Positions 5,303 through 40,628 of a stretch of DNA of 49,594 bases are shown here, piece after piece. The notes beneath the pieces are model-generated. The model saw nothing but the letters and a program-made list of their open reading frames with translations. It made no database searches and was not told where the DNA came from. Numbering within the stretch: the stretch's first letter is position 1; each line of letters starts with the position of its first letter. Source of the DNA: an uncultured Gammaproteobacteria bacterium (GTDB lineage: Bacteria > Patescibacteriota > Patescibacteriia > Magasanikbacterales > UBA10003); NCBI GenBank assembly GCA_964365025.1, contig CAYIOJ010000003.1, positions 1-49,594 of the forward strand, given 5' to 3'. The position numbers and the translations under genes are program-made.

Positions 5303-5376
5303 GGGCCTATGGTCTACCGGTATGACGGATCCATGGCATGGATCAAGACGGGGTTCGACTCCCCGTAGGTCCACCA
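5303..5376 (+). tRNA. tRNA-Ala (anticodon GGC), CCA encoded
   Basis: Manual cloverleaf. Acceptor GGGCCTA/TAGGTCC contains the G3:U70 alanine identity pair. Anticodon stem GATCC/GGATC, loop ATGGCAT (U33, GGC at 5335-5337, A37). T arm CGGGG-TTCGACT-CCCCG. Discriminator A followed by CCA. Confidence 0.85.
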
Positions 5377-9059: not shown

Positions 9060-10116
9060 CTGCCCGAATGGCCAGCCCTATGGCCGTGGCATAAAGAAGC
9101 GAGCGTTCTTCGGTCATTGGCGGCTGATTTGTCGGGAAAAGATTGACCCAAGGATTGGCTTTTCTAATTTTTAATTTTAATTTGGCGGATAAATAATTTT
9201 CTAGCGCCGGCAAGTTCGCCCCGCCGCCGCACAGCCGGATGCCGGTTAAAGGATTTTTTTCCGGAAAATGCAGCTTATAAAATTGAATGGCTTGCGTGAT
9301 TTTGTCGGCTAAATCATTCAAGCTGTTTTCCAGAACTGATTTTAAATTGCCTTTGCATTTTTTTGGGTCAATGCCGCATTCTTTTTTTATTTTTTCAGCT
9401 TCGGCCAAGTCTAGATTTAGGGCGTTAGAAATTTTTTCCGTTACTTCTTGTCCGGCAAAAGCCAAAGAAAGTGAAAATTGAATGACTCCGTGATCGTAAA
9501 TAACAAAACTGGAACGAGAAGCGCCCAGATCCAGGATGCCGCGCGCTTCGCGGGTCAAGTCTTTTTGGCGGTTGATAATAGCGCGAGTTATGGCGGTGGC
9601 TTCAACCTCCATGGCCAAAGGCGTCAAACCGGCGATATTTAAAAGATAGGTGTATGAGTCGGCTATTTTTTTGGGCACCGCCGCTAGCAACACAGACGCG
9701 TGATTGGCGTTTTGCTCAATAATCTGCCAGTCCAAATAAATATCATCCAATTCATAAGGCAGGTATGAAGGAGCAACTTCACGGACGATTTCTTCACTGA
9801 TTTGTTCGCCATTTGTTTTTAATTGGATTAATTGAATGTAGGTTTTAGTTTCAGGTAGAGATATTGCCACCCAAGGAGAAATAGCCAACCCATCTTTTTG
9901 TTTGGCGATATGGTTTTTTAATGCTTGGACTATTTCTTCCGGTTTTTGCAGTTCCCCGTCCACAATCCAACCAATCGGCAATGGAATTTGGGAAAAATGA
10001 GTCAAACGATGACAATATTTGAAGACGCCGCAACGGACGCGCTGCAACTGAACCAGTTTGATAGAACGATCGCCGATATCCATTCCGAAAGAGTGGTAAA
10101 AAGGATTAAGAAACAT
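9037..10116 (-). CDS. pilM: PilM, actin-like ATPase of the type IV pilus assembly platform
   Basis: FGMDIGDRSIKLVQL N-terminal phosphate-1 motif, ILDLGASRSSFVIY, and LCGGGANLPAL at the C-terminal part. Confidence 0.8.
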   Translation of the reverse strand: MFLNPFYHSFGMDIGDRSIKLVQLQRVRCGVFKYCHRLTHFSQIPLPIGWIVDGELQKPEEIVQALKNHIAKQKDGLAISPWVAISLPETKTYIQLIQLKTNGEQISEEIVREVAPSYLPYELDDIYLDWQIIEQNANHASVLLAAVPKKIADSYTYLLNIAGLTPLAMEVEATAITRAIINRQKDLTREARGILDLGASRSSFVIYDHGVIQFSLSLAFAGQEVTEKISNALNLDLAEAEKIKKECGIDPKKCKGNLKSVLENSLNDLADKITQAIQFYKLHFPEKNPLTGIRLCGGGANLPALENYLSAKLKLKIRKANPWVNLFPTNQPPMTEERSLLYATAIGLAIRADESPIKF

Positions 10117-13743: not shown

Positions 13744-14175
13744 ATGCGAAAATACGATTGTTTATTCCTTTTGCCCGGCACTTTTTCCGACAGCGAAATA
13801 CCAGGCATCCTGGAAAATGTTAAGAGTATTTTGGCTGAATTTGGTGCGGAGAATCCGCAATTTGAGAATTTGGGTCGACAAAAATTGGCTTATCCGATCA
13901 AAGGCGGCCATTTTGCCCATATTGTCAATTCTTCTTTTTCTTTAGCTCCGGGGAAAGTGTCCGCTTTAAAAAGCAAAATGATTTTGGAGCCGTTTGTTTG
14001 GCGTTTTTTGCTTTCTGATTATCAGGCCAAAGAGGTTATCAGACGCCGTCCGACCCAACCGATGTCTGACAAGACTCCCGCCGTTTCGTCCAAAGAACCA
14101 AACAAAGGAGTTGATCTGAAAGCGATTGATAAAAAAATTGAGGAAATTTTGCAGCAGGACAATTTGGTGGTATAG
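13744..14175 (+). CDS. rpsF: 30S ribosomal protein S6
   Basis: MRKYDCLFLL...FENLGRQKLAYPIKG matches the S6 N-terminal pattern. Classic rpsF-ssb-rpsR gene order. Confidence 0.85.
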   Translation: MRKYDCLFLLPGTFSDSEIPGILENVKSILAEFGAENPQFENLGRQKLAYPIKGGHFAHIVNSSFSLAPGKVSALKSKMILEPFVWRFLLSDYQAKEVIRRRPTQPMSDKTPAVSSKEPNKGVDLKAIDKKIEEILQQDNLVV

Positions 14176-14211
14176 TAAAGTTAAGTGAAAATAATATTTT
14201 TTTGAAAAAAT

Positions 14212-22130: not shown

Positions 22131-22311
22131 TTATTCTCCAGCCTATTTTTAATAAATTTTAATAAATATGTTGCTCCTCCGACTTGGGAGAGAAAATTTT
22201 TTTTTACCTTTGATTATATAAATGAGAAAATTTTTGGAACCAGATATTTGGTGTTGTGTGATGTACACAGAAAATTAATAAATTAGAGGGAAATTTTGTT
22301 ATTCTTTCCTA

Positions 22312-22884
22312 TTAAACTAAATCAATTTTTTCATATTCTTTGATGAGATTCTGCCAAGCATTATAAAGTCCCGTTAATTCATTCTGGATTTCTGGAAAAG
22401 AGGATAAATTCCGCAAGTCTCTTTCCATTTTAGCATAAACCATGAAGTTCTCCTTTTTATCCTTATCATCTTTGGCCATATCAAAATACGTTGAATTGGT
22501 CATGTGGCTGGCAGAATCTACAAAAGCCATAATTTTTGCCTCTAATGATTTTGGCATCACATCTCGGCATCTGTGAGAACGAACGCAATGCAACACCTCG
22601 TTCATTTTTTCTGACCCACAATTTTCATGTTCCAGAAATTCTTTGGCACGCTCCTCGCTACGAACCGCATGATCAATGTCTGTCGGGATAGGATAATGCC
22701 CAAGATCGTGCAACCAAACCGCCAGCAAAACAATTTCTTCGTTTGCTTGCGGATATTTATTCAACATAAATCTAGCCCATTTTTCCGCTTCTGGAACATG
22801 AGGTAAAAGATGATATGGGTCTGAGCCAAAATCACTCACCATTTCCAAAAATTTGGCTTTTGCTTTTTCAATAATTGACTCCAT
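22312..22884 (-). CDS. HD-domain metal-dependent phosphohydrolase
   Basis: LLAVWLHDLGH (the HD dyad), a later HCVRSH, and DSASHM. Confidence 0.7.
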   Translation of the reverse strand: MESIIEKAKAKFLEMVSDFGSDPYHLLPHVPEAEKWARFMLNKYPQANEEIVLLAVWLHDLGHYPIPTDIDHAVRSEERAKEFLEHENCGSEKMNEVLHCVRSHRCRDVMPKSLEAKIMAFVDSASHMTNSTYFDMAKDDKDKKENFMVYAKMERDLRNLSSFPEIQNELTGLYNAWQNLIKEYEKIDLV

Positions 22885-22964
22885 ATCTTATGAAAAAATT
22901 GATTATAAAATAGTGAATAACAAAATTTTTCTTCCTTATAAAAAATAAATTTTCTGTGTTTTTT

Positions 22965-23360
22965 GCACAATGGGCGGCGGATATGCGACGTCCCGTCCGG
23001 ACGAAAACAGAGTTTTCGGACGGGCGGGATGTAGCGAAGCGACGCATATCCGACAGTTCGGCGATGTCGCGAAGCGTAGCGAGCGACAGAGCAAGAACTG
23101 GCGGGCACCGCCGCCCATTCGGCAAAACGAGGAGGAGTCCGCGAGGACTCCGACGAGAGCGAGCGGAGCGAGCGATTTTGGCCAACGTATCCGAGTATGC
23201 GAAGCCGCGCCGTTGTTTTCAACACAAACTTTCGCTTTCAGATGATTGTATTTTATCATTTTAAGCCCTCAATTTCAATAGCGCGGTTTGGGTGAAGAAA
23301 ATAGCGATACCTTATTAAAAGTTAAAAATTTATCGCTATTTTCTGAACCGCATACTCGGT
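22965..23360. other. high-GC, palindrome-dense non-coding segment (candidate large structured RNA or cluster of REP-like elements)
   Basis: Perfect long-range complements: 22969-22980/23108-23119 (12 bp), 23191-23201/23349-23359 (11 bp), 23296-23308/23332-23344 (13 bp). Local hairpins include ggagtcc-GCGA-ggactcc (23134-23151). Every frame is open, but none has a start/RBS context. Confidence 0.4.
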
Positions 23361-23361
23361 G

Positions 23362-23423
23362 TTATCGGATGTAAATTATTTTCATTTTCGATTTTCGTCA
23401 TTTATTAAAAGGCAAATTTTGAT
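23362..23423. repeat. left arm of a ~62-bp imperfect inverted repeat (partner 25823..25885)
   Basis: ttatcggatgtaaattattttcattttcgatttt... matches the reverse complement of 25852-25885 at 32 of 34 positions. Similarity continues with small indels (aaggcaaattttgat versus aaggcgaattttgat). Confidence 0.85.
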
Positions 23424-23428
23424 TCCAC

Positions 23429-23479
23429 TTGGCGGGGGCGCAAGAGGGGAATAAAAGGGGTGAATTGCGCCCCCGCCAA
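23429..23479. other. 15-bp perfect GC-rich stem-loop just inside the left inverted repeat
   Basis: ttggcgggggcgcaa (23429-23443) and ttgcgcccccgccaa (23465-23479), with a 21-nt G-rich loop. Confidence 0.8.
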
Positions 23480-23490
23480 TCCGTTTATAC

Positions 23491-23544
23491 AAAATGAAGA
23501 AGGCCAGCGGTACTTTTCCGATTTCTCGGAATTTCCCGCTGGCC
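23491..23544 (-). terminator. probable terminator of the high-GC two-gene operon
   Basis: The minus strand reads GGCCAGCGG...(inner CCGA-gaaa-TCGG)...CCGCTGGCC followed by TTCTTCATTTT. It begins 19 nt after the stop at 23563. Confidence 0.5.
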
Positions 23545-23562
23545 CATGTGAGTTGGCCTGCT

Positions 23563-24168
23563 TCAGAGTTGAACCTCCTCCGCAGGCACGAATGCGGCGC
23601 TGTCGACATGCCCGCATGTCCAGTGTCCAGTCTGGATGAAGCCGACAAGCACGTACTTCCTTCCCCGGAATTCCATGACTTCGCCCAGCTCTCGCGGCAT
23701 GTGCCATCGGCCGCGTTCCTCCGGCGGAAGAAAACCGCGACTGTCAGCCCTCGGCCACGAGCGAGTCTTCTCCTCGTTGAGGAGCCACGCCCGAATCTCC
23801 GGCGGCTGAACCGGTTCCTCCTCTCCGTAGTAGATGGAAACCGTCAGTCCCAGGGCTTTGGCCCCCGGAACCCACCACCACTCGATGGTGGAAGTGAAAT
23901 CGAGCGGATCCCGAGCGTCTTTGTCCTCGACCACTGCCCTCCGCGCAATGTCGAGGAGCGTCGGTTTCTTGGCCGCCGTGCTTTTTTCCTCCATAGGTTT
24001 CTCCTCTGTTGGCTGGTGCGGAGGATTTTGCTGGCACATGCATGTCGGCGCCTGCACGGGCATCGTGGCCCTGCATCTCCCCATGTGCTCCTCATACTGA
24101 CGTCGTTTCTTCGGATACTTGTCTGCGCCTGCCGACAGTACGGACTCCTCATACCATGGCCGCGACAT
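23563..24168 (-). CDS. hypothetical protein (high-GC operon, gene 2), no recognisable family
   Basis: 201 aa from ATG 24168, preceded by caaaacaAGGAAGGAGGcaaaa. Normal amino-acid composition, in contrast to the Arg/Pro/Leu-rich antisense ORFs. 22-nt spacer to the upstream gene. Confidence 0.65.
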   Translation of the reverse strand: MSRPWYEESVLSAGADKYPKKRRQYEEHMGRCRATMPVQAPTCMCQQNPPHQPTEEKPMEEKSTAAKKPTLLDIARRAVVEDKDARDPLDFTSTIEWWWVPGAKALGLTVSIYYGEEEPVQPPEIRAWLLNEEKTRSWPRADSRGFLPPEERGRWHMPRELGEVMEFRGRKYVLVGFIQTGHWTCGHVDSAAFVPAEEVQL

Positions 24169-24190
24169 TTTTGCCTCCTTCCTTGTTTTG

Positions 24191-24733
24191 TTAGTCACCC
24201 TCGACAAGCACGCTGTATCCACCCCATTTTTCCACGGCCGCTTTCAACTCGACGTTCTGCTCGCGGCTGAAGATATCTCGGCCTTCGGCGCCCTGAATGG
24301 TGCAAGTGATGCATCCGAGCATGCCGAGTTTCACCCACACCATGTGGATATCGATCCTGTCGATCGCCCACAGCCTGGCGTAGATTTCCTGCTCTCGGTA
24401 TCCCGGGCAGTACTCTACTATGCAGTGAGAGCTTTCCAAGCAACCGGCATACGGAGCGGCACTCCGGTATTTCTTGCAGTTCTTTGCCGGTCGGAATACC
24501 CACAAACCATTCTCGTTCATGTCGAGGTGAAAGGATTCCCCAATTCTGTCGTTTGGCCAGTCAGCGCACCGGACCGTGACGAAGGCATGCCGCCAATCGT
24601 CACCGTTGCGTTCTTTTCCGCTGCTTTCTTCTGCTTGCACCACATACCCCGCGGCTTCAAACTCCTTCTTGACTTTCTCCGGTTGTTGCGCCGCGTAGGT
24701 CGTGTGAAAACGGTAGCAGATGTCCATGCCCAT
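24191..24733 (-). CDS. hypothetical Cys-rich protein (high-GC operon, gene 1), no recognisable family
   Basis: 180 aa from ATG 24733, preceded by caaacaAGGAAGGAGacaaaaa, nearly the same RBS context as gene 2. Contains 9 Cys, including CLESSHCIVEYC and CITC. Confidence 0.65.
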   Translation of the reverse strand: MGMDICYRFHTTYAAQQPEKVKKEFEAAGYVVQAEESSGKERNGDDWRHAFVTVRCADWPNDRIGESFHLDMNENGLWVFRPAKNCKKYRSAAPYAGCLESSHCIVEYCPGYREQEIYARLWAIDRIDIHMVWVKLGMLGCITCTIQGAEGRDIFSREQNVELKAAVEKWGGYSVLVEGD

Positions 24734-24911
24734 TTTTTGTCTCCTTCCTTGTTTGTTAAAGAGCCCCGTCTTCCTCCGCACCCATTACGGAGTTTAGACA
24801 AGTCAATGTACCAAATAAACCAGATTTGTAAATACTATGCGTCAGAGAAAATGGTGAAATATGCGCGAATAAGCCAAAATAATAAAATAAAATATAAATT
24901 GTAAGTAATCA

Positions 24912-24940
24912 TTGACACAATGTAGCCTTTGTGATATGAT
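24912..24940 (+). promoter_or_regulatory. sigma70-like promoter of the TrmB-family regulator gene
   Basis: TTGACA (24912-24917), 17 nt, TATGAT (24935-24940). ATG at 24976. Confidence 0.55.
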
Positions 24941-24975
24941 GGAAATGTATAAATTAGCATTTTAAACACAAACAT

Positions 24976-25764
24976 ATGGCAAACCTAATCGACGATCTCG
25001 GTTTAGACGAAAACGAAGCAAAAGTATATCAAGCACTTTTAGAGATTGGGCCTTCTACGGTTAGCCAAATAACAAAAAAAGCGGGTATCACCCGCACCTT
25101 TGGTTATCAGATTTTGGAAAAATTGAGTATTTACGGATTGGTCAATCGTGTTTCTGGCGAAAGGGTAAAAATTCGCTATGCTGCGGAACATCCGCGCCAT
25201 TTGGTGCAATTTATCCAAAACCGCAAAAACCAATGGGAGAGGCGGCTTAAAGATGTTGAACAACGTCTGCCGGATTTAGTTTCACTTTTCAAAGTCGCGG
25301 AAAAACCAATCATAAAATATCAAGAAGGAATTGAAGGTGTAAAAACTATTTACAGCCAAACCCTTGAATCAAAAGAAGAAATTTTATCTATTTTGGATAT
25401 TGAAGGTTGGGATGTGCCGGAATTTCGGCAATGGGGAAGAGAATATAATCGACAACGCAGTGAAAAGAAAATCAAAGAGCGGATACTTATGCTTGATACT
25501 CCGCAAGGCCGTGACTGGATGAAAAATTATCGCGGGTCTTTCAAATACACGTATTGTCGCTGGATAAAATCAGAACAGTTGCCTGGAATTAAAGAGTTTG
25601 GCGGCGAAATAAACATTTATGAAAACAAAGTTGTGATTGCGCTTTTGAAAAAGACTAATTTGATGGGAGTAATGATTGAAAGCACGGCCTTGGCAAACAT
25701 TTTGAAAGGATTGTTTGAGTTGGCGTGGACGCAAGGGGTGGAAGCAAGAAAAAGTAAAAAATAA
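24976..25764 (+). CDS. TrmB-family transcriptional regulator (wHTH plus C-terminal sensor-like domain)
   Basis: LGLDENEAKVYQALLEIGPSTVSQITKKAGITRTFGYQILEKLSIYGLVNRV is a typical TrmB N-terminal wHTH. Total length 262 aa. Confidence 0.8.
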   Translation: MANLIDDLGLDENEAKVYQALLEIGPSTVSQITKKAGITRTFGYQILEKLSIYGLVNRVSGERVKIRYAAEHPRHLVQFIQNRKNQWERRLKDVEQRLPDLVSLFKVAEKPIIKYQEGIEGVKTIYSQTLESKEEILSILDIEGWDVPEFRQWGREYNRQRSEKKIKERILMLDTPQGRDWMKNYRGSFKYTYCRWIKSEQLPGIKEFGGEINIYENKVVIALLKKTNLMGVMIESTALANILKGLFELAWTQGVEARKSKK

Positions 25765-25771
25765 AAAAAGC

Positions 25772-25797
25772 GTCCCGCCCGAATATACGGGCGGGAC
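25772..25797. terminator. GC-rich hairpin after the TrmB-family gene (bidirectional shape)
   Basis: gtcccgccc-gaatatac-gggcgggac, preceded by an A-run. Confidence 0.6.
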
Positions 25798-25822
25798 ACC
25801 ATATTTCCCCTAATCAAAAAAT

Positions 25823-25885
25823 ATCAAAATTCGCCTTTCCTTATTCAAATAAAAATCGAAAATGAAAATAATTTATTTCCGATAA
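25823..25885. repeat. right arm of the ~62-bp inverted repeat (partner 23362..23423)
   Basis: aaaatcgaaaatgaaaataatttatttccgataa (25852-25885) is the reverse complement of 23362-23395 with 2 mismatches. The inner part aligns with indels. Confidence 0.85.
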
Positions 25886-26119
25886 ACTACTTATATACCA
25901 ACTCACCTGTTTTTTCTCTAAAACATGCCAAAATGTCAACGGATAGTTGCTTATAGGAAGGGTTGTGTAAGGCATTTTTATTCTAACACCATTTAAGGCA
26001 GGCGGCAACACACCTCCCCAATAAAAAGCTCTCCGCTATTTTAAGGCTGAGTTGGTCATCATTTATCCACACCCCCATTCTTTACTGTTTTTGAAATAAT
26101 AGGTATAATTTGTATATAC

Positions 26120-26157
26120 GTTTCTATTTTTTATCATTTTTAATAAAGAAATGAAAT
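26120..26157 (+). repeat. 38-nt direct repeat, copy 1 (abiEi upstream region plus first codons); copy 2 at 28724..28761
   Basis: gtttctattttttatcatttttaataaagaaatgaaat versus gtttccgttttttatcatttttaataaaaaaatgaaat: 35 of 38 identical. Confidence 0.85.
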
Positions 26158-34800: not shown

Positions 34801-35094
34801 GAAATGGAGGTCTGGGCGCTGGAGGCCTATGGCGCCGCGGCTATGTTGCAGGAAATTTTAACTATTAAATCCGATGACGTGCCCGGCCGTTCCAAAGCTT
34901 ATGAATCAATTATTAAGGGCGAACCCATTACCCGTTTGAACATCCCCGAATCATTCAATGTGCTGGTGCGCGAACTTAAAGGTTTGGGGTTGGATATTGA
35001 ATTATTGCGTAAAAGCGAAACCAAAAAAGGCGATTATGATGTCGTAAAGGTCGACGACAAAAGCCAAGGTGAGCCGGAACGAGATTTCAGATAA
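31804..35094 (+). CDS. rpoB: DNA-directed RNA polymerase subunit beta
   Basis: [16 protein letters not shown], the rifampicin-cluster region [46 protein letters not shown]. The start was chosen at ATG 31804; the track GTG at 31765 is also possible. Confidence 0.97.
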
Positions 35095-39099: not shown

Positions 39100-39852
39100 T
39101 TATTTAATTTCATCAAAAGGCAGAGAACCAATCATTGCCGCGATAGATTCATTATTGATTTTCCTGGAATAATATATTTGATTCATTTCCATTTCTTTTT
39201 GCGCGCCAACTATCATCCAGTTATTTTTAATGTTGGCTTTGGTGAGAGGTTTCCGTATTTCTTTTTGTTTGATGTAGCTCACAATTTCGTTCAAATTCAG
39301 TTGGTACTTTTTTAAAATAAGAAACAAATCATAAAAATCACGATAGCGGGCGCGGTCATTTGTGGCTCGGATTTTTTCCGCGCAGATTTCTTTGATGTCC
39401 ATAACTCTCACCTCCAATTTGATGCCCCAAACATTGTTGTATTTCATGGTTTTAGGCGGTAAGAGCACATTCTGCAAAAAATCAATTTCAACTTTTAAAG
39501 AGTTTGGCTGAATCAGCGGTCCGGTATATTGCAGTCGTTCGATCTTTATTGTCGCGTCGGAGAGGTAATCTTTTTTAATGCTCAAATAGTATGTGTCAAT
39601 GAAAATCTTTTGTACCTCTTCCAAAGATATTGTTTTTTGATTGGCGGAAAAATCTAAATCTTCGGAAAAACGGTATTGTTCCAAATAGCAGTGATGTAGA
39701 GAGGTACCGCCTTTGAATATTAAGGTGTTCTTGAGGGTGGATTGAGTAATGATTTGGATTACGAGAGCGAGAAAATAGTCCTTCTCGGCAATTTGGAGCG
39801 GATACTTTAAGGTTCGGCGATTAATAATTTCCAATTGTTGGCGGGTGATCAT
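39100..39852 (-). CDS. abiEii: AbiEii/AbiGii-family nucleotidyltransferase toxin (second copy, divergent sequence)
   Basis: FKGGTSLHHCYLEQYRFSEDLDFS signature. 4-nt ATGA overlap with the upstream antitoxin gene. Confidence 0.85.
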   Translation of the reverse strand: MITRQQLEIINRRTLKYPLQIAEKDYFLALVIQIITQSTLKNTLIFKGGTSLHHCYLEQYRFSEDLDFSANQKTISLEEVQKIFIDTYYLSIKKDYLSDATIKIERLQYTGPLIQPNSLKVEIDFLQNVLLPPKTMKYNNVWGIKLEVRVMDIKEICAEKIRATNDRARYRDFYDLFLILKKYQLNLNEIVSYIKQKEIRKPLTKANIKNNWMIVGAQKEMEMNQIYYSRKINNESIAAMIGSLPFDEIK

Positions 39853-40628
39853 AATTTGAATTGATCAAAATATCCGTCGTAATAAAGACGCCATTTAGCA
39901 TTGAATTTTTTATCACCAGCGAGCATCCAATGAGTGCCCCGTTTATTTTTTATGAGTTCATGCAAGCGAACAGAATCAAGGCCTAAAAAATCAAAGATGA
40001 GACCAAAAGTTTTAATGGTAGCGCCGGAAAATTTAGATAAGTATTCGTTGAAGCGATTAAAATCCAAATCCCGTTTATGATTTATAATTTTTTCAATCAC
40101 CACATCAATCGTCAATTTGCTTTTATGAAAATTCACCATATCAATCAAGGCCTTTTCCGCGGTGGCAATCCGCGCCGTTTTATTATCCATTTGTACTTCG
40201 TCAAAACCAAAATACAAGTTCTTTTTAGTTTTAACAAAGCTGTATTCCATATTATTGAGTTTTGTGGCTTTGTACATTTTCAAGCTGACCGAGACGGTTT
40301 TATTCATTAATTGGTCAAACATGCTGTGGTATTGAAGAGCGGACTCAAAAGAGACATAGGAATCTTTGACTAACAAATTGGCTGTCAGATAGGGTGATAG
40401 AGATAGAAAGCCGCGGTTCGTTAATTCAGAAATGGTGTAGAGTCCGCGTTTAATTCGAATCAGCCAACCGTCCTTGGTAAGTTTAGTAATGATGTTTTTG
40501 GTTTGCTTGTAATCCCAACTGCCCTTGCTTGTCTCAATAATTTGCCTCGAAGTAACAATAAGGCCAAATTTGCCGATTAAATTTTCTAATAATTCGCTTT
40601 GTTTAACGGAAAGGATAGTTTGTTTCAT
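39849..40628 (-). CDS. abiEi: AbiEi-family antitoxin (second copy)
   Basis: ...LTKDGWLIRIKRGLYTI wHTH end motif. 259 aa. Coupled to abiEii. Confidence 0.7.
   Translation of the reverse strand: MKQTILSVKQSELLENLIGKFGLIVTSRQIIETSKGSWDYKQTKNIITKLTKDGWLIRIKRGLYTISELTNRGFLSLSPYLTANLLVKDSYVSFESALQYHSMFDQLMNKTVSVSLKMYKATKLNNMEYSFVKTKKNLYFGFDEVQMDNKTARIATAEKALIDMVNFHKSKLTIDVVIEKIINHKRDLDFNRFNEYLSKFSGATIKTFGLIFDFLGLDSVRLHELIKNKRGTHWMLAGDKKFNAKWRLYYDGYFDQFKL

Follow-up and report, generated by a model that had tools for sequence, protein, structure and literature searches.

Integron integrases are thought to have derived from Xer-type enzymes by gaining a helix for folded single-stranded sites (PMC4792948, PMC7790495). 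In the CTX phage, two inverted dif-like half-sites in single-stranded DNA fold into a hairpin that mimics dif and has an unpaired center, and integration at the chromosomal dif site gives tandem arrays (PMC3442271, PMC4246890, PMC5357621). In Acinetobacter, pdif sites bound gene modules as inverted Xer sites of alternating orientation, and this cargo is shuffled between replicons (PMC6449649, PMC13141974). In the XerS/difSL and archaeal xerA/dif modules, a single Xer-type gene lies immediately beside its site; their described role is chromosome dimer resolution, and the review that covers them mentions no cassette array beside the site (PMC5357621). Here, we compare with these systems a segment at positions 22965–23360 of a 49,594-nucleotide (nt) stretch of DNA (the window; GenBank assembly GCA_964365025.1, contig CAYIOJ010000003.1), which is deposited as an uncultured Gammaproteobacteria bacterium and placed by GTDB in the Patescibacteriota (Magasanikbacterales, UBA10003), within the candidate phyla radiation (CPR). 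The segment is bordered on one side by the start of an HD-domain gene on the minus strand (22312–22884) and on the other by a GC-rich block, and a sequence-only reading had taken it for a candidate large structured RNA. We know of no natural system described as intermediate between the Xer and integron systems.

The segment consists of three modules, namely domain 1, a mini-cassette without an open reading frame (ORF) and domain 2, and is not one large RNA (Table 1). Rather than a stand-alone RNA gene, it is probably the boundary at which cassette A and the HD cassette, two mobile gene cassettes of a recombinase-linked array, adjoin. From the comparison of related loci we propose that domains 1 and 2 are recombination sites of an Xer-linked array, resembling either attC or the attP(+) site of CTX, with recombination itself being what we infer. 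In the proposed mechanism, this CPR lineage's Xer-like tyrosine recombinase would use both domains as its sites and would act on them as single-stranded DNA, not as RNA. Folding would take place in the strand that is antisense to the cassette genes, and the base of the hairpin would mimic dif with an irregular spacer. Cassettes would insert at a dif-like site adjoining the recombinase gene, and excision or shuffling could follow later. In addition, domain 2 may act as an insulator: its AT-rich hairpin would stop transcription from the upstream cassette and its promoter would restart transcription toward the next one.

Read on the minus strand, the array in the window runs from the dif-like site (25904–25875) through cassette A, domain 2, the 70-nt mini-cassette, domain 1 and the HD cassette to a decayed palindrome. 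Its boundaries are all of the form ...AAC | GTT..., with one AAT | ATT in which both sides have changed. The cassette ends are inverted over approximately 55–62 nt, begin with GTT or ATT and finish with AAC; the mini-cassette also has inverted ends, and the cassette genes are co-oriented with the exception of the TrmB gene. This organization is like that of attC arrays in sedentary chromosomal integrons and of the Vibrio cholerae repeats (VCR) of Vibrio, where imperfect palindromes lie between mostly co-oriented accessory cassettes and the cores have ...AAC and GTT... at their opposite ends.

Relatives of the segment were sought by using the translation of one of its frames as a surrogate DNA query. 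This returned two contigs from a metagenome collection (L008 and L009; related loci are designated by L numbers) and no match in a viral contig collection; a distant-mode search of a phage collection also gave no match. In addition, contigs were obtained for eight members of the recombinase family described below. In L008, two copies of the element flank a small GNAT gene. L009 runs from domain 2 through a cassette that has the inverted ends of cassette A and a different gene, then a short palindrome and a second cassette with different inverted ends, to a tyrosine recombinase gene. L014 and L018 carry the same three-part unit as the window, lying between cassettes, with the layout AAY | domain 1 | (G/A)TT, a mini-cassette ending in AAC, and GTWT + stem ... 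stem + T | GTTA....

Across other groundwater and Magasanikbacteria-type contigs, this unit or a shortened form of it thus stands between gene cassettes that are unrelated to one another. The modules also occur apart. Domain 1 and the mini-cassette are found without domain 2 in L011 and at 9748–9920 of L018, and in both loci they abut the site upstream of the recombinase gene, while domain-2-type units stand alone in L009 and L014. In total, domain 1 has four further copies (two in L008 and one each in L011 and L018). Domain 2 has near-identical long copies in L008 and L009 and short versions of 49–120 nt in L008, L009, L014 and L018. Since the modules recur alone or together between unrelated genes on other contigs, the single large RNA gene of the sequence-only reading does not hold by that reading's own criterion of decomposition; the part of that claim that stands is a secondary structure that is real and conserved, as explained below.

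The related loci place these modules beside a recombinase gene. On long contigs, this gene divides conserved housekeeping genes from small accessory genes (GNAT, hydrolase, HicAB, EamA, Fic, a restriction-modification system, HD and others), which are mostly directed away from it. A dif-like site lies upstream of the Xer-like gene in L009–L014, L018, L019 and L021, and a co-oriented cassette array starts at the site beside the divergent recombinase gene in L009, L014 and L018–L021, as integron arrays start beside their integrase gene. The window's own site at 25875–25904 is similar in layout and sequence to the sites that lie 70–110 nt upstream of the Xer-like gene. Five contigs from independent assemblies (L010–L013 and L022) end approximately 90–350 nt upstream of the recombinase gene. 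Such breaks, at cassette ends or upstream of the gene, are as expected for repeated or variable DNA, and metagenome bins probably under-represent and fragment the cassette arrays.

Two of these loci differ from one another at the site itself. L018 and L019 have an identical recombinase and common downstream genes and carry different upstream cassettes (GNAT/hydrolase versus a restriction-modification system). The cassettes meet the common chromosomal sequence exactly at AAC|TCCTGT, where the two junctions read ..GCCGAAC|TCCTGTTATACC and ..CACATAAC|TCCTGTTATACC, or in longer form ..GTTGCCGAAC|TCCTGTTATACCAACC and ..TTTCACATAAC|TCCTGTTATACCAACC. This polymorphism is what site-specific insertion at one fixed position would leave behind.

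The sequence-only reading had offered a pile-up of repetitive extragenic palindromic (REP) elements as its alternative, and the modules could be selfish palindromic repeats, like REP elements, bacterial interspersed mosaic elements or miniature inverted-repeat transposable elements, that occupy intergenic DNA, have no cassette role and lie near the recombinase by coincidence. In spirit this alternative comes nearer than the single RNA, as the modules are indeed repeated, palindromic, intergenic and nested, and short motifs such as AGCGAAGCGAGCGA recur. However, no second copy of any part of the segment was found in the 49.6-kb window and no target-site duplications flank the units. In every locus examined the copies are confined to the variable region beginning at the recombinase gene's upstream site, relative to which they all have one orientation, and the strain differences break exactly at the AAC junction. 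The repeated palindromic modules are tied to cassette boundaries and to the recombinase gene and are not randomly dispersed, and we regard selfish repeats as a very improbable explanation.

The recombinase of L009 scores 246.6 bits against NF040815 (XerA/integron integrase; cutoff 220) and 251.1 bits against TIGR02249 (integron integrase), which is below the cutoff of 265. It is colinear with P. abyssi XerA (PDB 4a8e) and aligns with VchIntIA (PDB 2a3v) in two blocks, 15–184 / 8–180 and 202–278 / 241–317. The family comprises more than 5000 CPR proteins with E < 1e-40, whose names refer to Magasanikbacteria, Uhrbacteria and Patescibacteria, and matches the 'Cand' Xer-related subgroup of PMC8138268.

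The complementarities within the segment are far beyond chance, and all seven that the sequence-only reading listed are present at the coordinates it gave. The 12 perfect base pairs (bp), 22969–22980 with 23108–23119, lengthen to 18 of 20 over 22961–22980 / 23108–23127. Within domain 1, the helix 22978–22990 / 23040–23052 has 12 of 13 positions paired, a bulged hairpin spans 22985–23035, and tgtcgc pairs with gcgaca at 23065–23070 / 23083–23088; overall, the interior consists of a long bulged hairpin (22981–23052) and a second hairpin (23050–23105). The mini-cassette holds the ggagtcc-GCGA-ggactcc hairpin (23134–23151) together with a recurring GAGCGAGCGGAGCGAGCGA motif. Domain 2 has an outer stem of 11 perfect bp (23191–23201 / 23349–23359), an inner stem (23202–23210 / 23281–23289) and an AT-rich hairpin, which is perfect over 14 bp. 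The pairing aagccgcgc/gcgcggttt, which includes a G:U, is retained in three copies.

As a whole, the 411-nt region folds to −183 kcal/mol on the + strand (z = −9.5 against dinucleotide shuffles) and to −158.5 kcal/mol on the − strand (z = −7.9), and on each strand 0 of 100 shuffles equals it. When folded alone, the half 22958–23190 has z = −8.8 (+) and −5.9 (−), and the half 23188–23362 has z = −8.6 (+) and −6.5 (−). Because the halves are significant when folded separately, the score is not a mere effect of mixing GC-rich with AT-rich DNA.

Conservation of the domain 1 structure was assessed with RNAalifold on five hand-chosen sequences (the window, two from L008, L011 and L018); an automatic alignment of model matches was set aside, as it contained a reverse-strand match. 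The sequence-only reading had asked whether homologs carry compensatory changes, and here they do: of 56 predicted pairs, 11 are changed on both sides, against 4.1 ± 1.4 in shuffles (0 of 500 shuffles). Paired cells amount to 90.6%, versus 30–47% when the partners are slid by 1–3 columns. The tip of the long hairpin has been swapped for unrelated hairpins in L011 and L018, and the closing AAC/GTT has become AAT/ATT in the window and L018, with both sides changed. The ends of the mini-cassette also covary between copies (GTTCAGCGACA...TGTCGCTGAAC in the first L008 copy, GTTGGCCGAAA...TTTCGGCCAAC in L009). This resembles attC sites, in which structure is kept more than sequence and the tip is variable. 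In domain 2, the positions that vary are those of the AT-rich hairpin loop and of the spacer of a promoter-like site.

The + strand had been favored as the folding strand in the sequence-only reading, and it is the more stable one in all five copies of domain 1, by 12–21 kcal/mol with RNA parameters and by 4–11 kcal/mol with DNA parameters. This strand is antisense to the cassette genes, as is the better-folding 'bottom' strand of integron sites. A further integron likeness is that the first bases of a cassette can pair with the far side of that cassette's own site, so that the hairpin would be extended in an excised circle. When the right end of cassette A was joined to domain 2 in silico (25887 to 23187, as in such a circle), 49 extra pairs formed and the fold with DNA parameters changed from −48.6 to −71.5 kcal/mol.

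The junctions themselves are regular. They were tabulated with a regular-expression scan of both strands, which gave four layouts (Table 1), and the spacings on either side of domain 2 differ consistently by 3 nt from genome to genome. Every unit has AAC...GTT (AAT...ATT once, changed on both sides), and the RYYY/RRRY flanks of attC fit in part (GGCCAAC, CGATAAC and GCATAAC / GTTATCG, GTTAGCT and GTTAAGT). The half-site TATGCG(A) is present in the stems of domains 1 and 2 and, in the closest loci (L009–L011), forms the chromosomal arm of the recombinase-side site; this arm is TATACC or TAAACC at the window's own site and in L012–L014 and L018. A dif-like core, with arms of approximately 11 bp and a center of 6–8 bp, occurs at the recombinase-side site and on one side of the domain-2-type units, where the spacing is 6–7 nt; elsewhere it is 9–11 nt. 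The modules are flanked by inversely oriented sites whose orientation alternates, as seen from the junction table and the inverted cassette ends.

These junctions raise the question of whether duplex dif-like sites alone could account for the array, with modules bounded by inverted Xer cores being moved or inverted as duplex DNA, as for Acinetobacter pdif or integrative mobile elements exploiting Xer (IMEX), and the hairpins being a by-product of inverted sites and terminators. In favor of this, the Xer-like recombinase has no integron-specific domain, and one boundary of every domain-2-type unit, together with the recombinase-side site, reads arm-AAC + 6–7 nt + TAT(A/G)C(C/G). Each arm resembles the E. 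coli dif sequence at approximately 8 of 11 positions. Units hold one or the other arm inside as the site orientation alternates, an organization described for dif modules (PMC13141974, PMC6449649), and xerS and some xerA genes adjoin their dif site (PMC5357621). However, the remaining boundaries, with their 9–11 nt, would not be tolerable for a duplex core, and the 3-nt difference of domain 2 persists across genomes. Duplex sites would also leave unexplained why the interior helices of domain 1 are kept through 11 compensated pairs and replacement of the whole tip, why one strand consistently folds better, and why cassette ends are complementary over 55–62 nt, far beyond the need of two 11-bp arms. 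We consider duplex sites alone an unlikely explanation, though one that retains some weight.

One or both domains could instead be a structured non-coding RNA, either an antisense + strand RNA from domain 1 through which cassette expression or recombination is controlled, or, from a promoter in domain 2, a 5' leader or small RNA of the minus strand. Strong fold z-scores, covariation and the use of G:U on the + strand all suit an RNA, and so does a conserved putative promoter on the minus strand with a terminator-like hairpin (GGAGTCC-TCGC-GGACTCC plus TCCTCGTTTT) approximately 95 nt further on. The promoter-like site is directed at domain 1 and the HD cassette; its hexamers, TG and 17-nt spacing (TTGAAA-17 nt-TGnTAAnAT) are the same in the window, the second L008 copy and the first L009 copy, and its spacer sequence varies. 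Against an RNA, this site lies between the arms of the long-range helices of domain 2, so a transcript would be without the 5' arms and could not form them. No promoter-like site was found on the + strand of the segment, and domain 1 folds better on the strand that is antisense to the conserved promoter-like site.

Database searches did not point to an RNA family either. With Rfam 15, the whole window gave no structured-RNA match at gathering thresholds, and the best matches of the segment at E ≤ 10 were to unrelated microRNA, small nucleolar RNA and small RNA models with E of 0.7–10. A scan for tRNA and tmRNA had a tRNA-Ala at 5303–5376 as its sole match. The GNRA hairpin cited by the sequence-only reading in favor of an RNA on the + strand is present, but it is not kept in homologous copies. 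Finally, the units lie exactly on cassette boundaries whose ends covary with the cassette, which is unexplained for an RNA gene. A structured RNA is, in our assessment, quite unlikely. Apart from these results, a region at 31270–31500, upstream of a 1109-residue ORF (31765–35094), is GC-rich and structured-looking and has no Rfam match at E ≤ 0.1.

Protein coding was considered and rejected for the open frames of the segment. The sequence-only reading had described six open frames; five of the six are open across the GC-rich part, and one + frame has two stops. A concatenated six-frame translation had no homolog when 8000 candidates from 5.8 billion proteins were scored, and the frames are broken by indels between copies. 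A retron, group II intron, insertion sequence guide RNA or CRISPR locus was likewise rejected, as no reverse transcriptase, transposase or Cas match was found among the scanned neighbor proteins with Pfam, PHROGs and PADLOC.

Several points weigh against the proposal that the two domains are recombination sites of an Xer-linked array. Integron integrases use an extra domain to read folded attC sites, and approximately 43 residues are absent from the L009 recombinase where this IntI-specific additional domain (patch III, I2 helix) lies. A tyrosine recombinase gene was not found in the window: tblastn gave noise only, and one weak match, at 29338–29469, falls in a Fic gene. The putative link to the enzyme comes from about ten related loci. 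Typical attC sites are roughly 57–141 nt long, and the domains of the window are longer (approximately 150 and 185 nt), although the homologous short units of L008, L009 and L014 measure 49–120 nt. The spacing between AAC and TATGCG varies with the type of junction (6, 7, 9, 10 or 11 nt), and the canonical layout of a double-stranded core site is present at some junctions only. The five copies of domain 1 are related to one another, so the strand bias does not amount to five independent observations, and the stems of domain 2 are invariant in the three long copies and so give no covariation evidence either way. In addition, compensatory changes and the use of G:T or G:U fit RNA as well as single-stranded DNA.

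Comparison with the known systems shows where the array stands. It is not of the integron family as defined, because the defining domain of the integrase is absent, and this enzyme falls just under the integron-integrase cutoff. Unlike integrons, the array has domains of 150–185 nt, two of them in tandem around a 70-nt empty cassette, and cassette ends that are complementary over 55–62 nt as opposed to approximately 6 nt; domain 2 has its own predicted promoter, and the window is without a recombinase gene. Nor is the array a plain dif-module system. The pdif sites are plain 28-bp duplex sites on plasmids, whereas here alternate 'modules' are non-coding hairpins of 50–185 nt with covarying helices, and the arrays are chromosomal and anchored at one site. 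As for CTX and IMEX, the candidate enzyme belongs to the Xer family and is without an integron-type domain, but the cargo consists of small cassettes of one to three genes and not of phage genomes, a single XerA-like recombinase takes the place of the XerC and XerD pair, the recombinase gene adjoins the site, and the hairpin structures are much more complex. The position of the gene immediately beside its site and a protein colinear with XerA are shared with the XerS/difSL and archaeal xerA/dif modules.

The segment also resembles large ornate RNAs (ROOL, GOLLD, HEARO/OMEGA, OLE and raiA) in size, in its nested multi-helix fold, in high GC relative to the surroundings and in partial covariation. 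It differs from these RNAs in having no covariance-model match, in splitting into separately recurring modules, in lying exactly on cassette boundaries and in having no promoter and terminator that frame the whole.

The arrays are integron-like, with structure-conserved palindromes, AAC/GTT cores, anchoring at a recombinase gene and strain-specific content, yet they go with a plain Xer-like enzyme. This leads to a broader and more tentative reading, namely that they may represent an Xer-based analog of the integron in CPR. In such a system, a XerA-like enzyme without the I2 helix could capture cassettes through large folded single-stranded hairpins at a dif-like site beside its own gene and so build strain-specific arrays of defense, toxin-antitoxin and metabolic genes. 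The segment would then amount to a tandem pair of such sites on either side of an empty cassette, with terminator and promoter built in, and the system might have arrived at the integron principle independently or might be an extant relative of the transition from Xer to IntI. If the enzyme does move cassettes, the origin of integrons would become directly testable, and the exchange of accessory genes in the very small genomes of CPR would be explained. The products of the cassettes seen in the arrays are GNAT, Fic, HicAB, restriction-modification and HD proteins. The arrays would probably escape standard integron finders, because these require the IntI-specific domain, and no such arrays were described in the literature that we searched on CPR/Patescibacteria integrons, attC sites, gene cassettes, tyrosine recombinases and palindromes, a coverage that is incomplete and yields absence of evidence only. 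A practical consequence for annotation is that intergenic blocks of high GC and strong folding indicate cassette boundaries, and not RNA genes, in these genomes. As a candidate large RNA the segment fails; its real interest is as a pointer to an integron-like system on an Xer-type enzyme.

Table 1. Features of the cassette array in the window and layouts of its junctions (., no strand assigned)
Feature	Position	Strand	Description
Distal palindrome remnant past HD cassette	22240–22252	−	ACCAAATATCTGG; partner arm absent from window
HD-hydrolase cassette	22253–22970	−	gene 22312–22884, Pfam HD; inverted ends of approximately 55 nt
Domain 1	22969–23119	+	closing stem AAT-GGGCGGCGG / CCGCCGCCC-ATT around two hairpins
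Mini-cassette, ORF-less	23117–23186	.	inverted ends ATTCGGCAAAA ... TTTTGGCCAAC
Domain 2	23184–23368	+	AAC-GTAT-CCGAGTATGCG ... CGCATACTCGG-T-GTTATCGG
Promoter-like site TTGAAA-17 nt-TGaTAAAAT	23250–23278	−	10/12 matches + TG
AT-rich perfect 14-bp hairpin, A and T runs either side	23296–23344	.	stem kept, loop variable in three copies
Cassette A left inverted end	23361–23423	+	G|TTATCGGATGTAAATTATTTTCATTTTCGATTTT...; pairs with 25823–25885, 34-nt perfect core
Cassette A	23362–25887	−	GC-rich, 50–54% versus 36–38% in flanking kilobases
Cassette A gene, 201 amino acids	23563–24168	−	
Cassette A gene, 180 amino acids	24191–24736	−	
Cassette A gene, TrmB-family regulator	24976–25764	+	
Cassette A right inverted end	25823–25887	+	...AAAATCGAAAATGAAAATAATTTATTTCCGATAAAC
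dif-like site, array start	25875–25904	+	ATTTCCGATAAAC-TACTTA-TATACCAACTC
Domain-2-type unit, one side			AAC + 9 nt + TATGCG
Domain-2-type unit, other side (opposite strand)			AAC + 6 nt + TATGCG
Domain 1 junction			AAY + 10–11 nt + TAT(G/C)CG
Recombinase-side site			AAC + 6–7 nt + TAT(A/G)C(C/G)

The AT-rich hairpin of domain 2 looks like a terminator for a cassette operon arriving on the minus strand, a role that would agree with the insulator function proposed above. A side observation concerns the minus strand from 23243 to 23125, where the promoter and the terminator-like hairpin that follows it could yield a small RNA of approximately 115 nt. At the equivalent position, the other copies have a different hairpin and then a short T run.

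In a self-comparison of the window, the inverted repeats 23362–23423 / 25823–25885 (62 nt) enclose exactly the GC-rich block that is cassette A. Hairpins lie just within these ends, at 23429–23479 and 25771–25798, and the end sequence is also found on an L009 cassette with other cargo. The 180- and 201-residue proteins of cassette A had no match in Pfam, PHROGs or PADLOC. For the 180-residue protein, a single homolog was found among 5.8 billion proteins; it is 81% identical and also adjoins a TrmB gene (L001). The structured segment is not an obligatory part of cassette A, because the locus of this sole homolog is without it. A Logan contig, L003, spans exactly 23423–25818. As a separate observation, L003, L004 and L005, which come from independent assemblies, all stop at the inner edge of the cassette inverted repeat (23423–23442 of the window).

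The HD gene itself appears, from comparison of its flanks, to be a mobile cassette. On the minus strand, the cassette starts A|TTGTGCAAAAAACACAG and finishes CTGTGTACATCACACAAC. Its protein is at least 90% identical in amino acids to those of cassettes in L015 and L016, where the neighbors or downstream genes differ. The homology to these loci starts exactly at ATTGT, directly past domain 1, and fades soon after ..ACAAC. In L015, ACCAAATATCTGG opens a full palindrome, ACCAAATATCTGG...CAGATATTTGG, of which the window has this one arm only. A synteny search through the HD gene in GTDB genomes gave two loci, neither with a related element upstream; since the gene is mobile, this result is uninformative. 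In another locus with an HD homolog, the archaeal-labelled L006, a GC-rich unit of approximately 60 nt (caggtaagcg..gccaagt..ttgg.gtcaaaccag.tt.gacttc) occurs twice upstream of the gene (1090–1330) and is unrelated to the element described here.

To the left of the HD gene, the window continues with a gene for 131 amino acids, ftsK and recA. To the right of cassette A lie an AbiEi/AbiEii pair, a histidine phosphatase and a Fic gene. The window has two AbiEi/AbiEii pairs (type IV toxin-antitoxin/abortive infection), at 26151–27564 and 39100–40628, and the first is directly past the dif-like site, where relatives carry the recombinase gene. An intergenic minus-strand sequence at 14164–14192, ATTTTCACTTAAC-TTTAC-TATACCACCAA, resembles the site at 25875–25904 with a 5-nt center; approximately four chance occurrences of this loose pattern are expected in the window, and it may be nothing.

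Two further observations concern the remainder of the window. Near-duplicate ends of minus-strand genes lie approximately 1.2 kb apart, at 28890–28965 and 30100–30175 (accaccattttt..aatgtggacagaac..), which suggests paralogous small genes in the variable region. A palindrome of approximately 90 nt (TTAGTATACCTTAYGAGTATACTA..TTGT.AATAGTGC...GTATATTAGCCAAAAA) is common to 31104–31200 of the window, where it lies upstream of a gene for 116 amino acids, and to 5660–5750 of L014, where it lies upstream of an ATPase_2/DUF234 gene, and probably represents a conserved operator or promoter carried along with cassettes.

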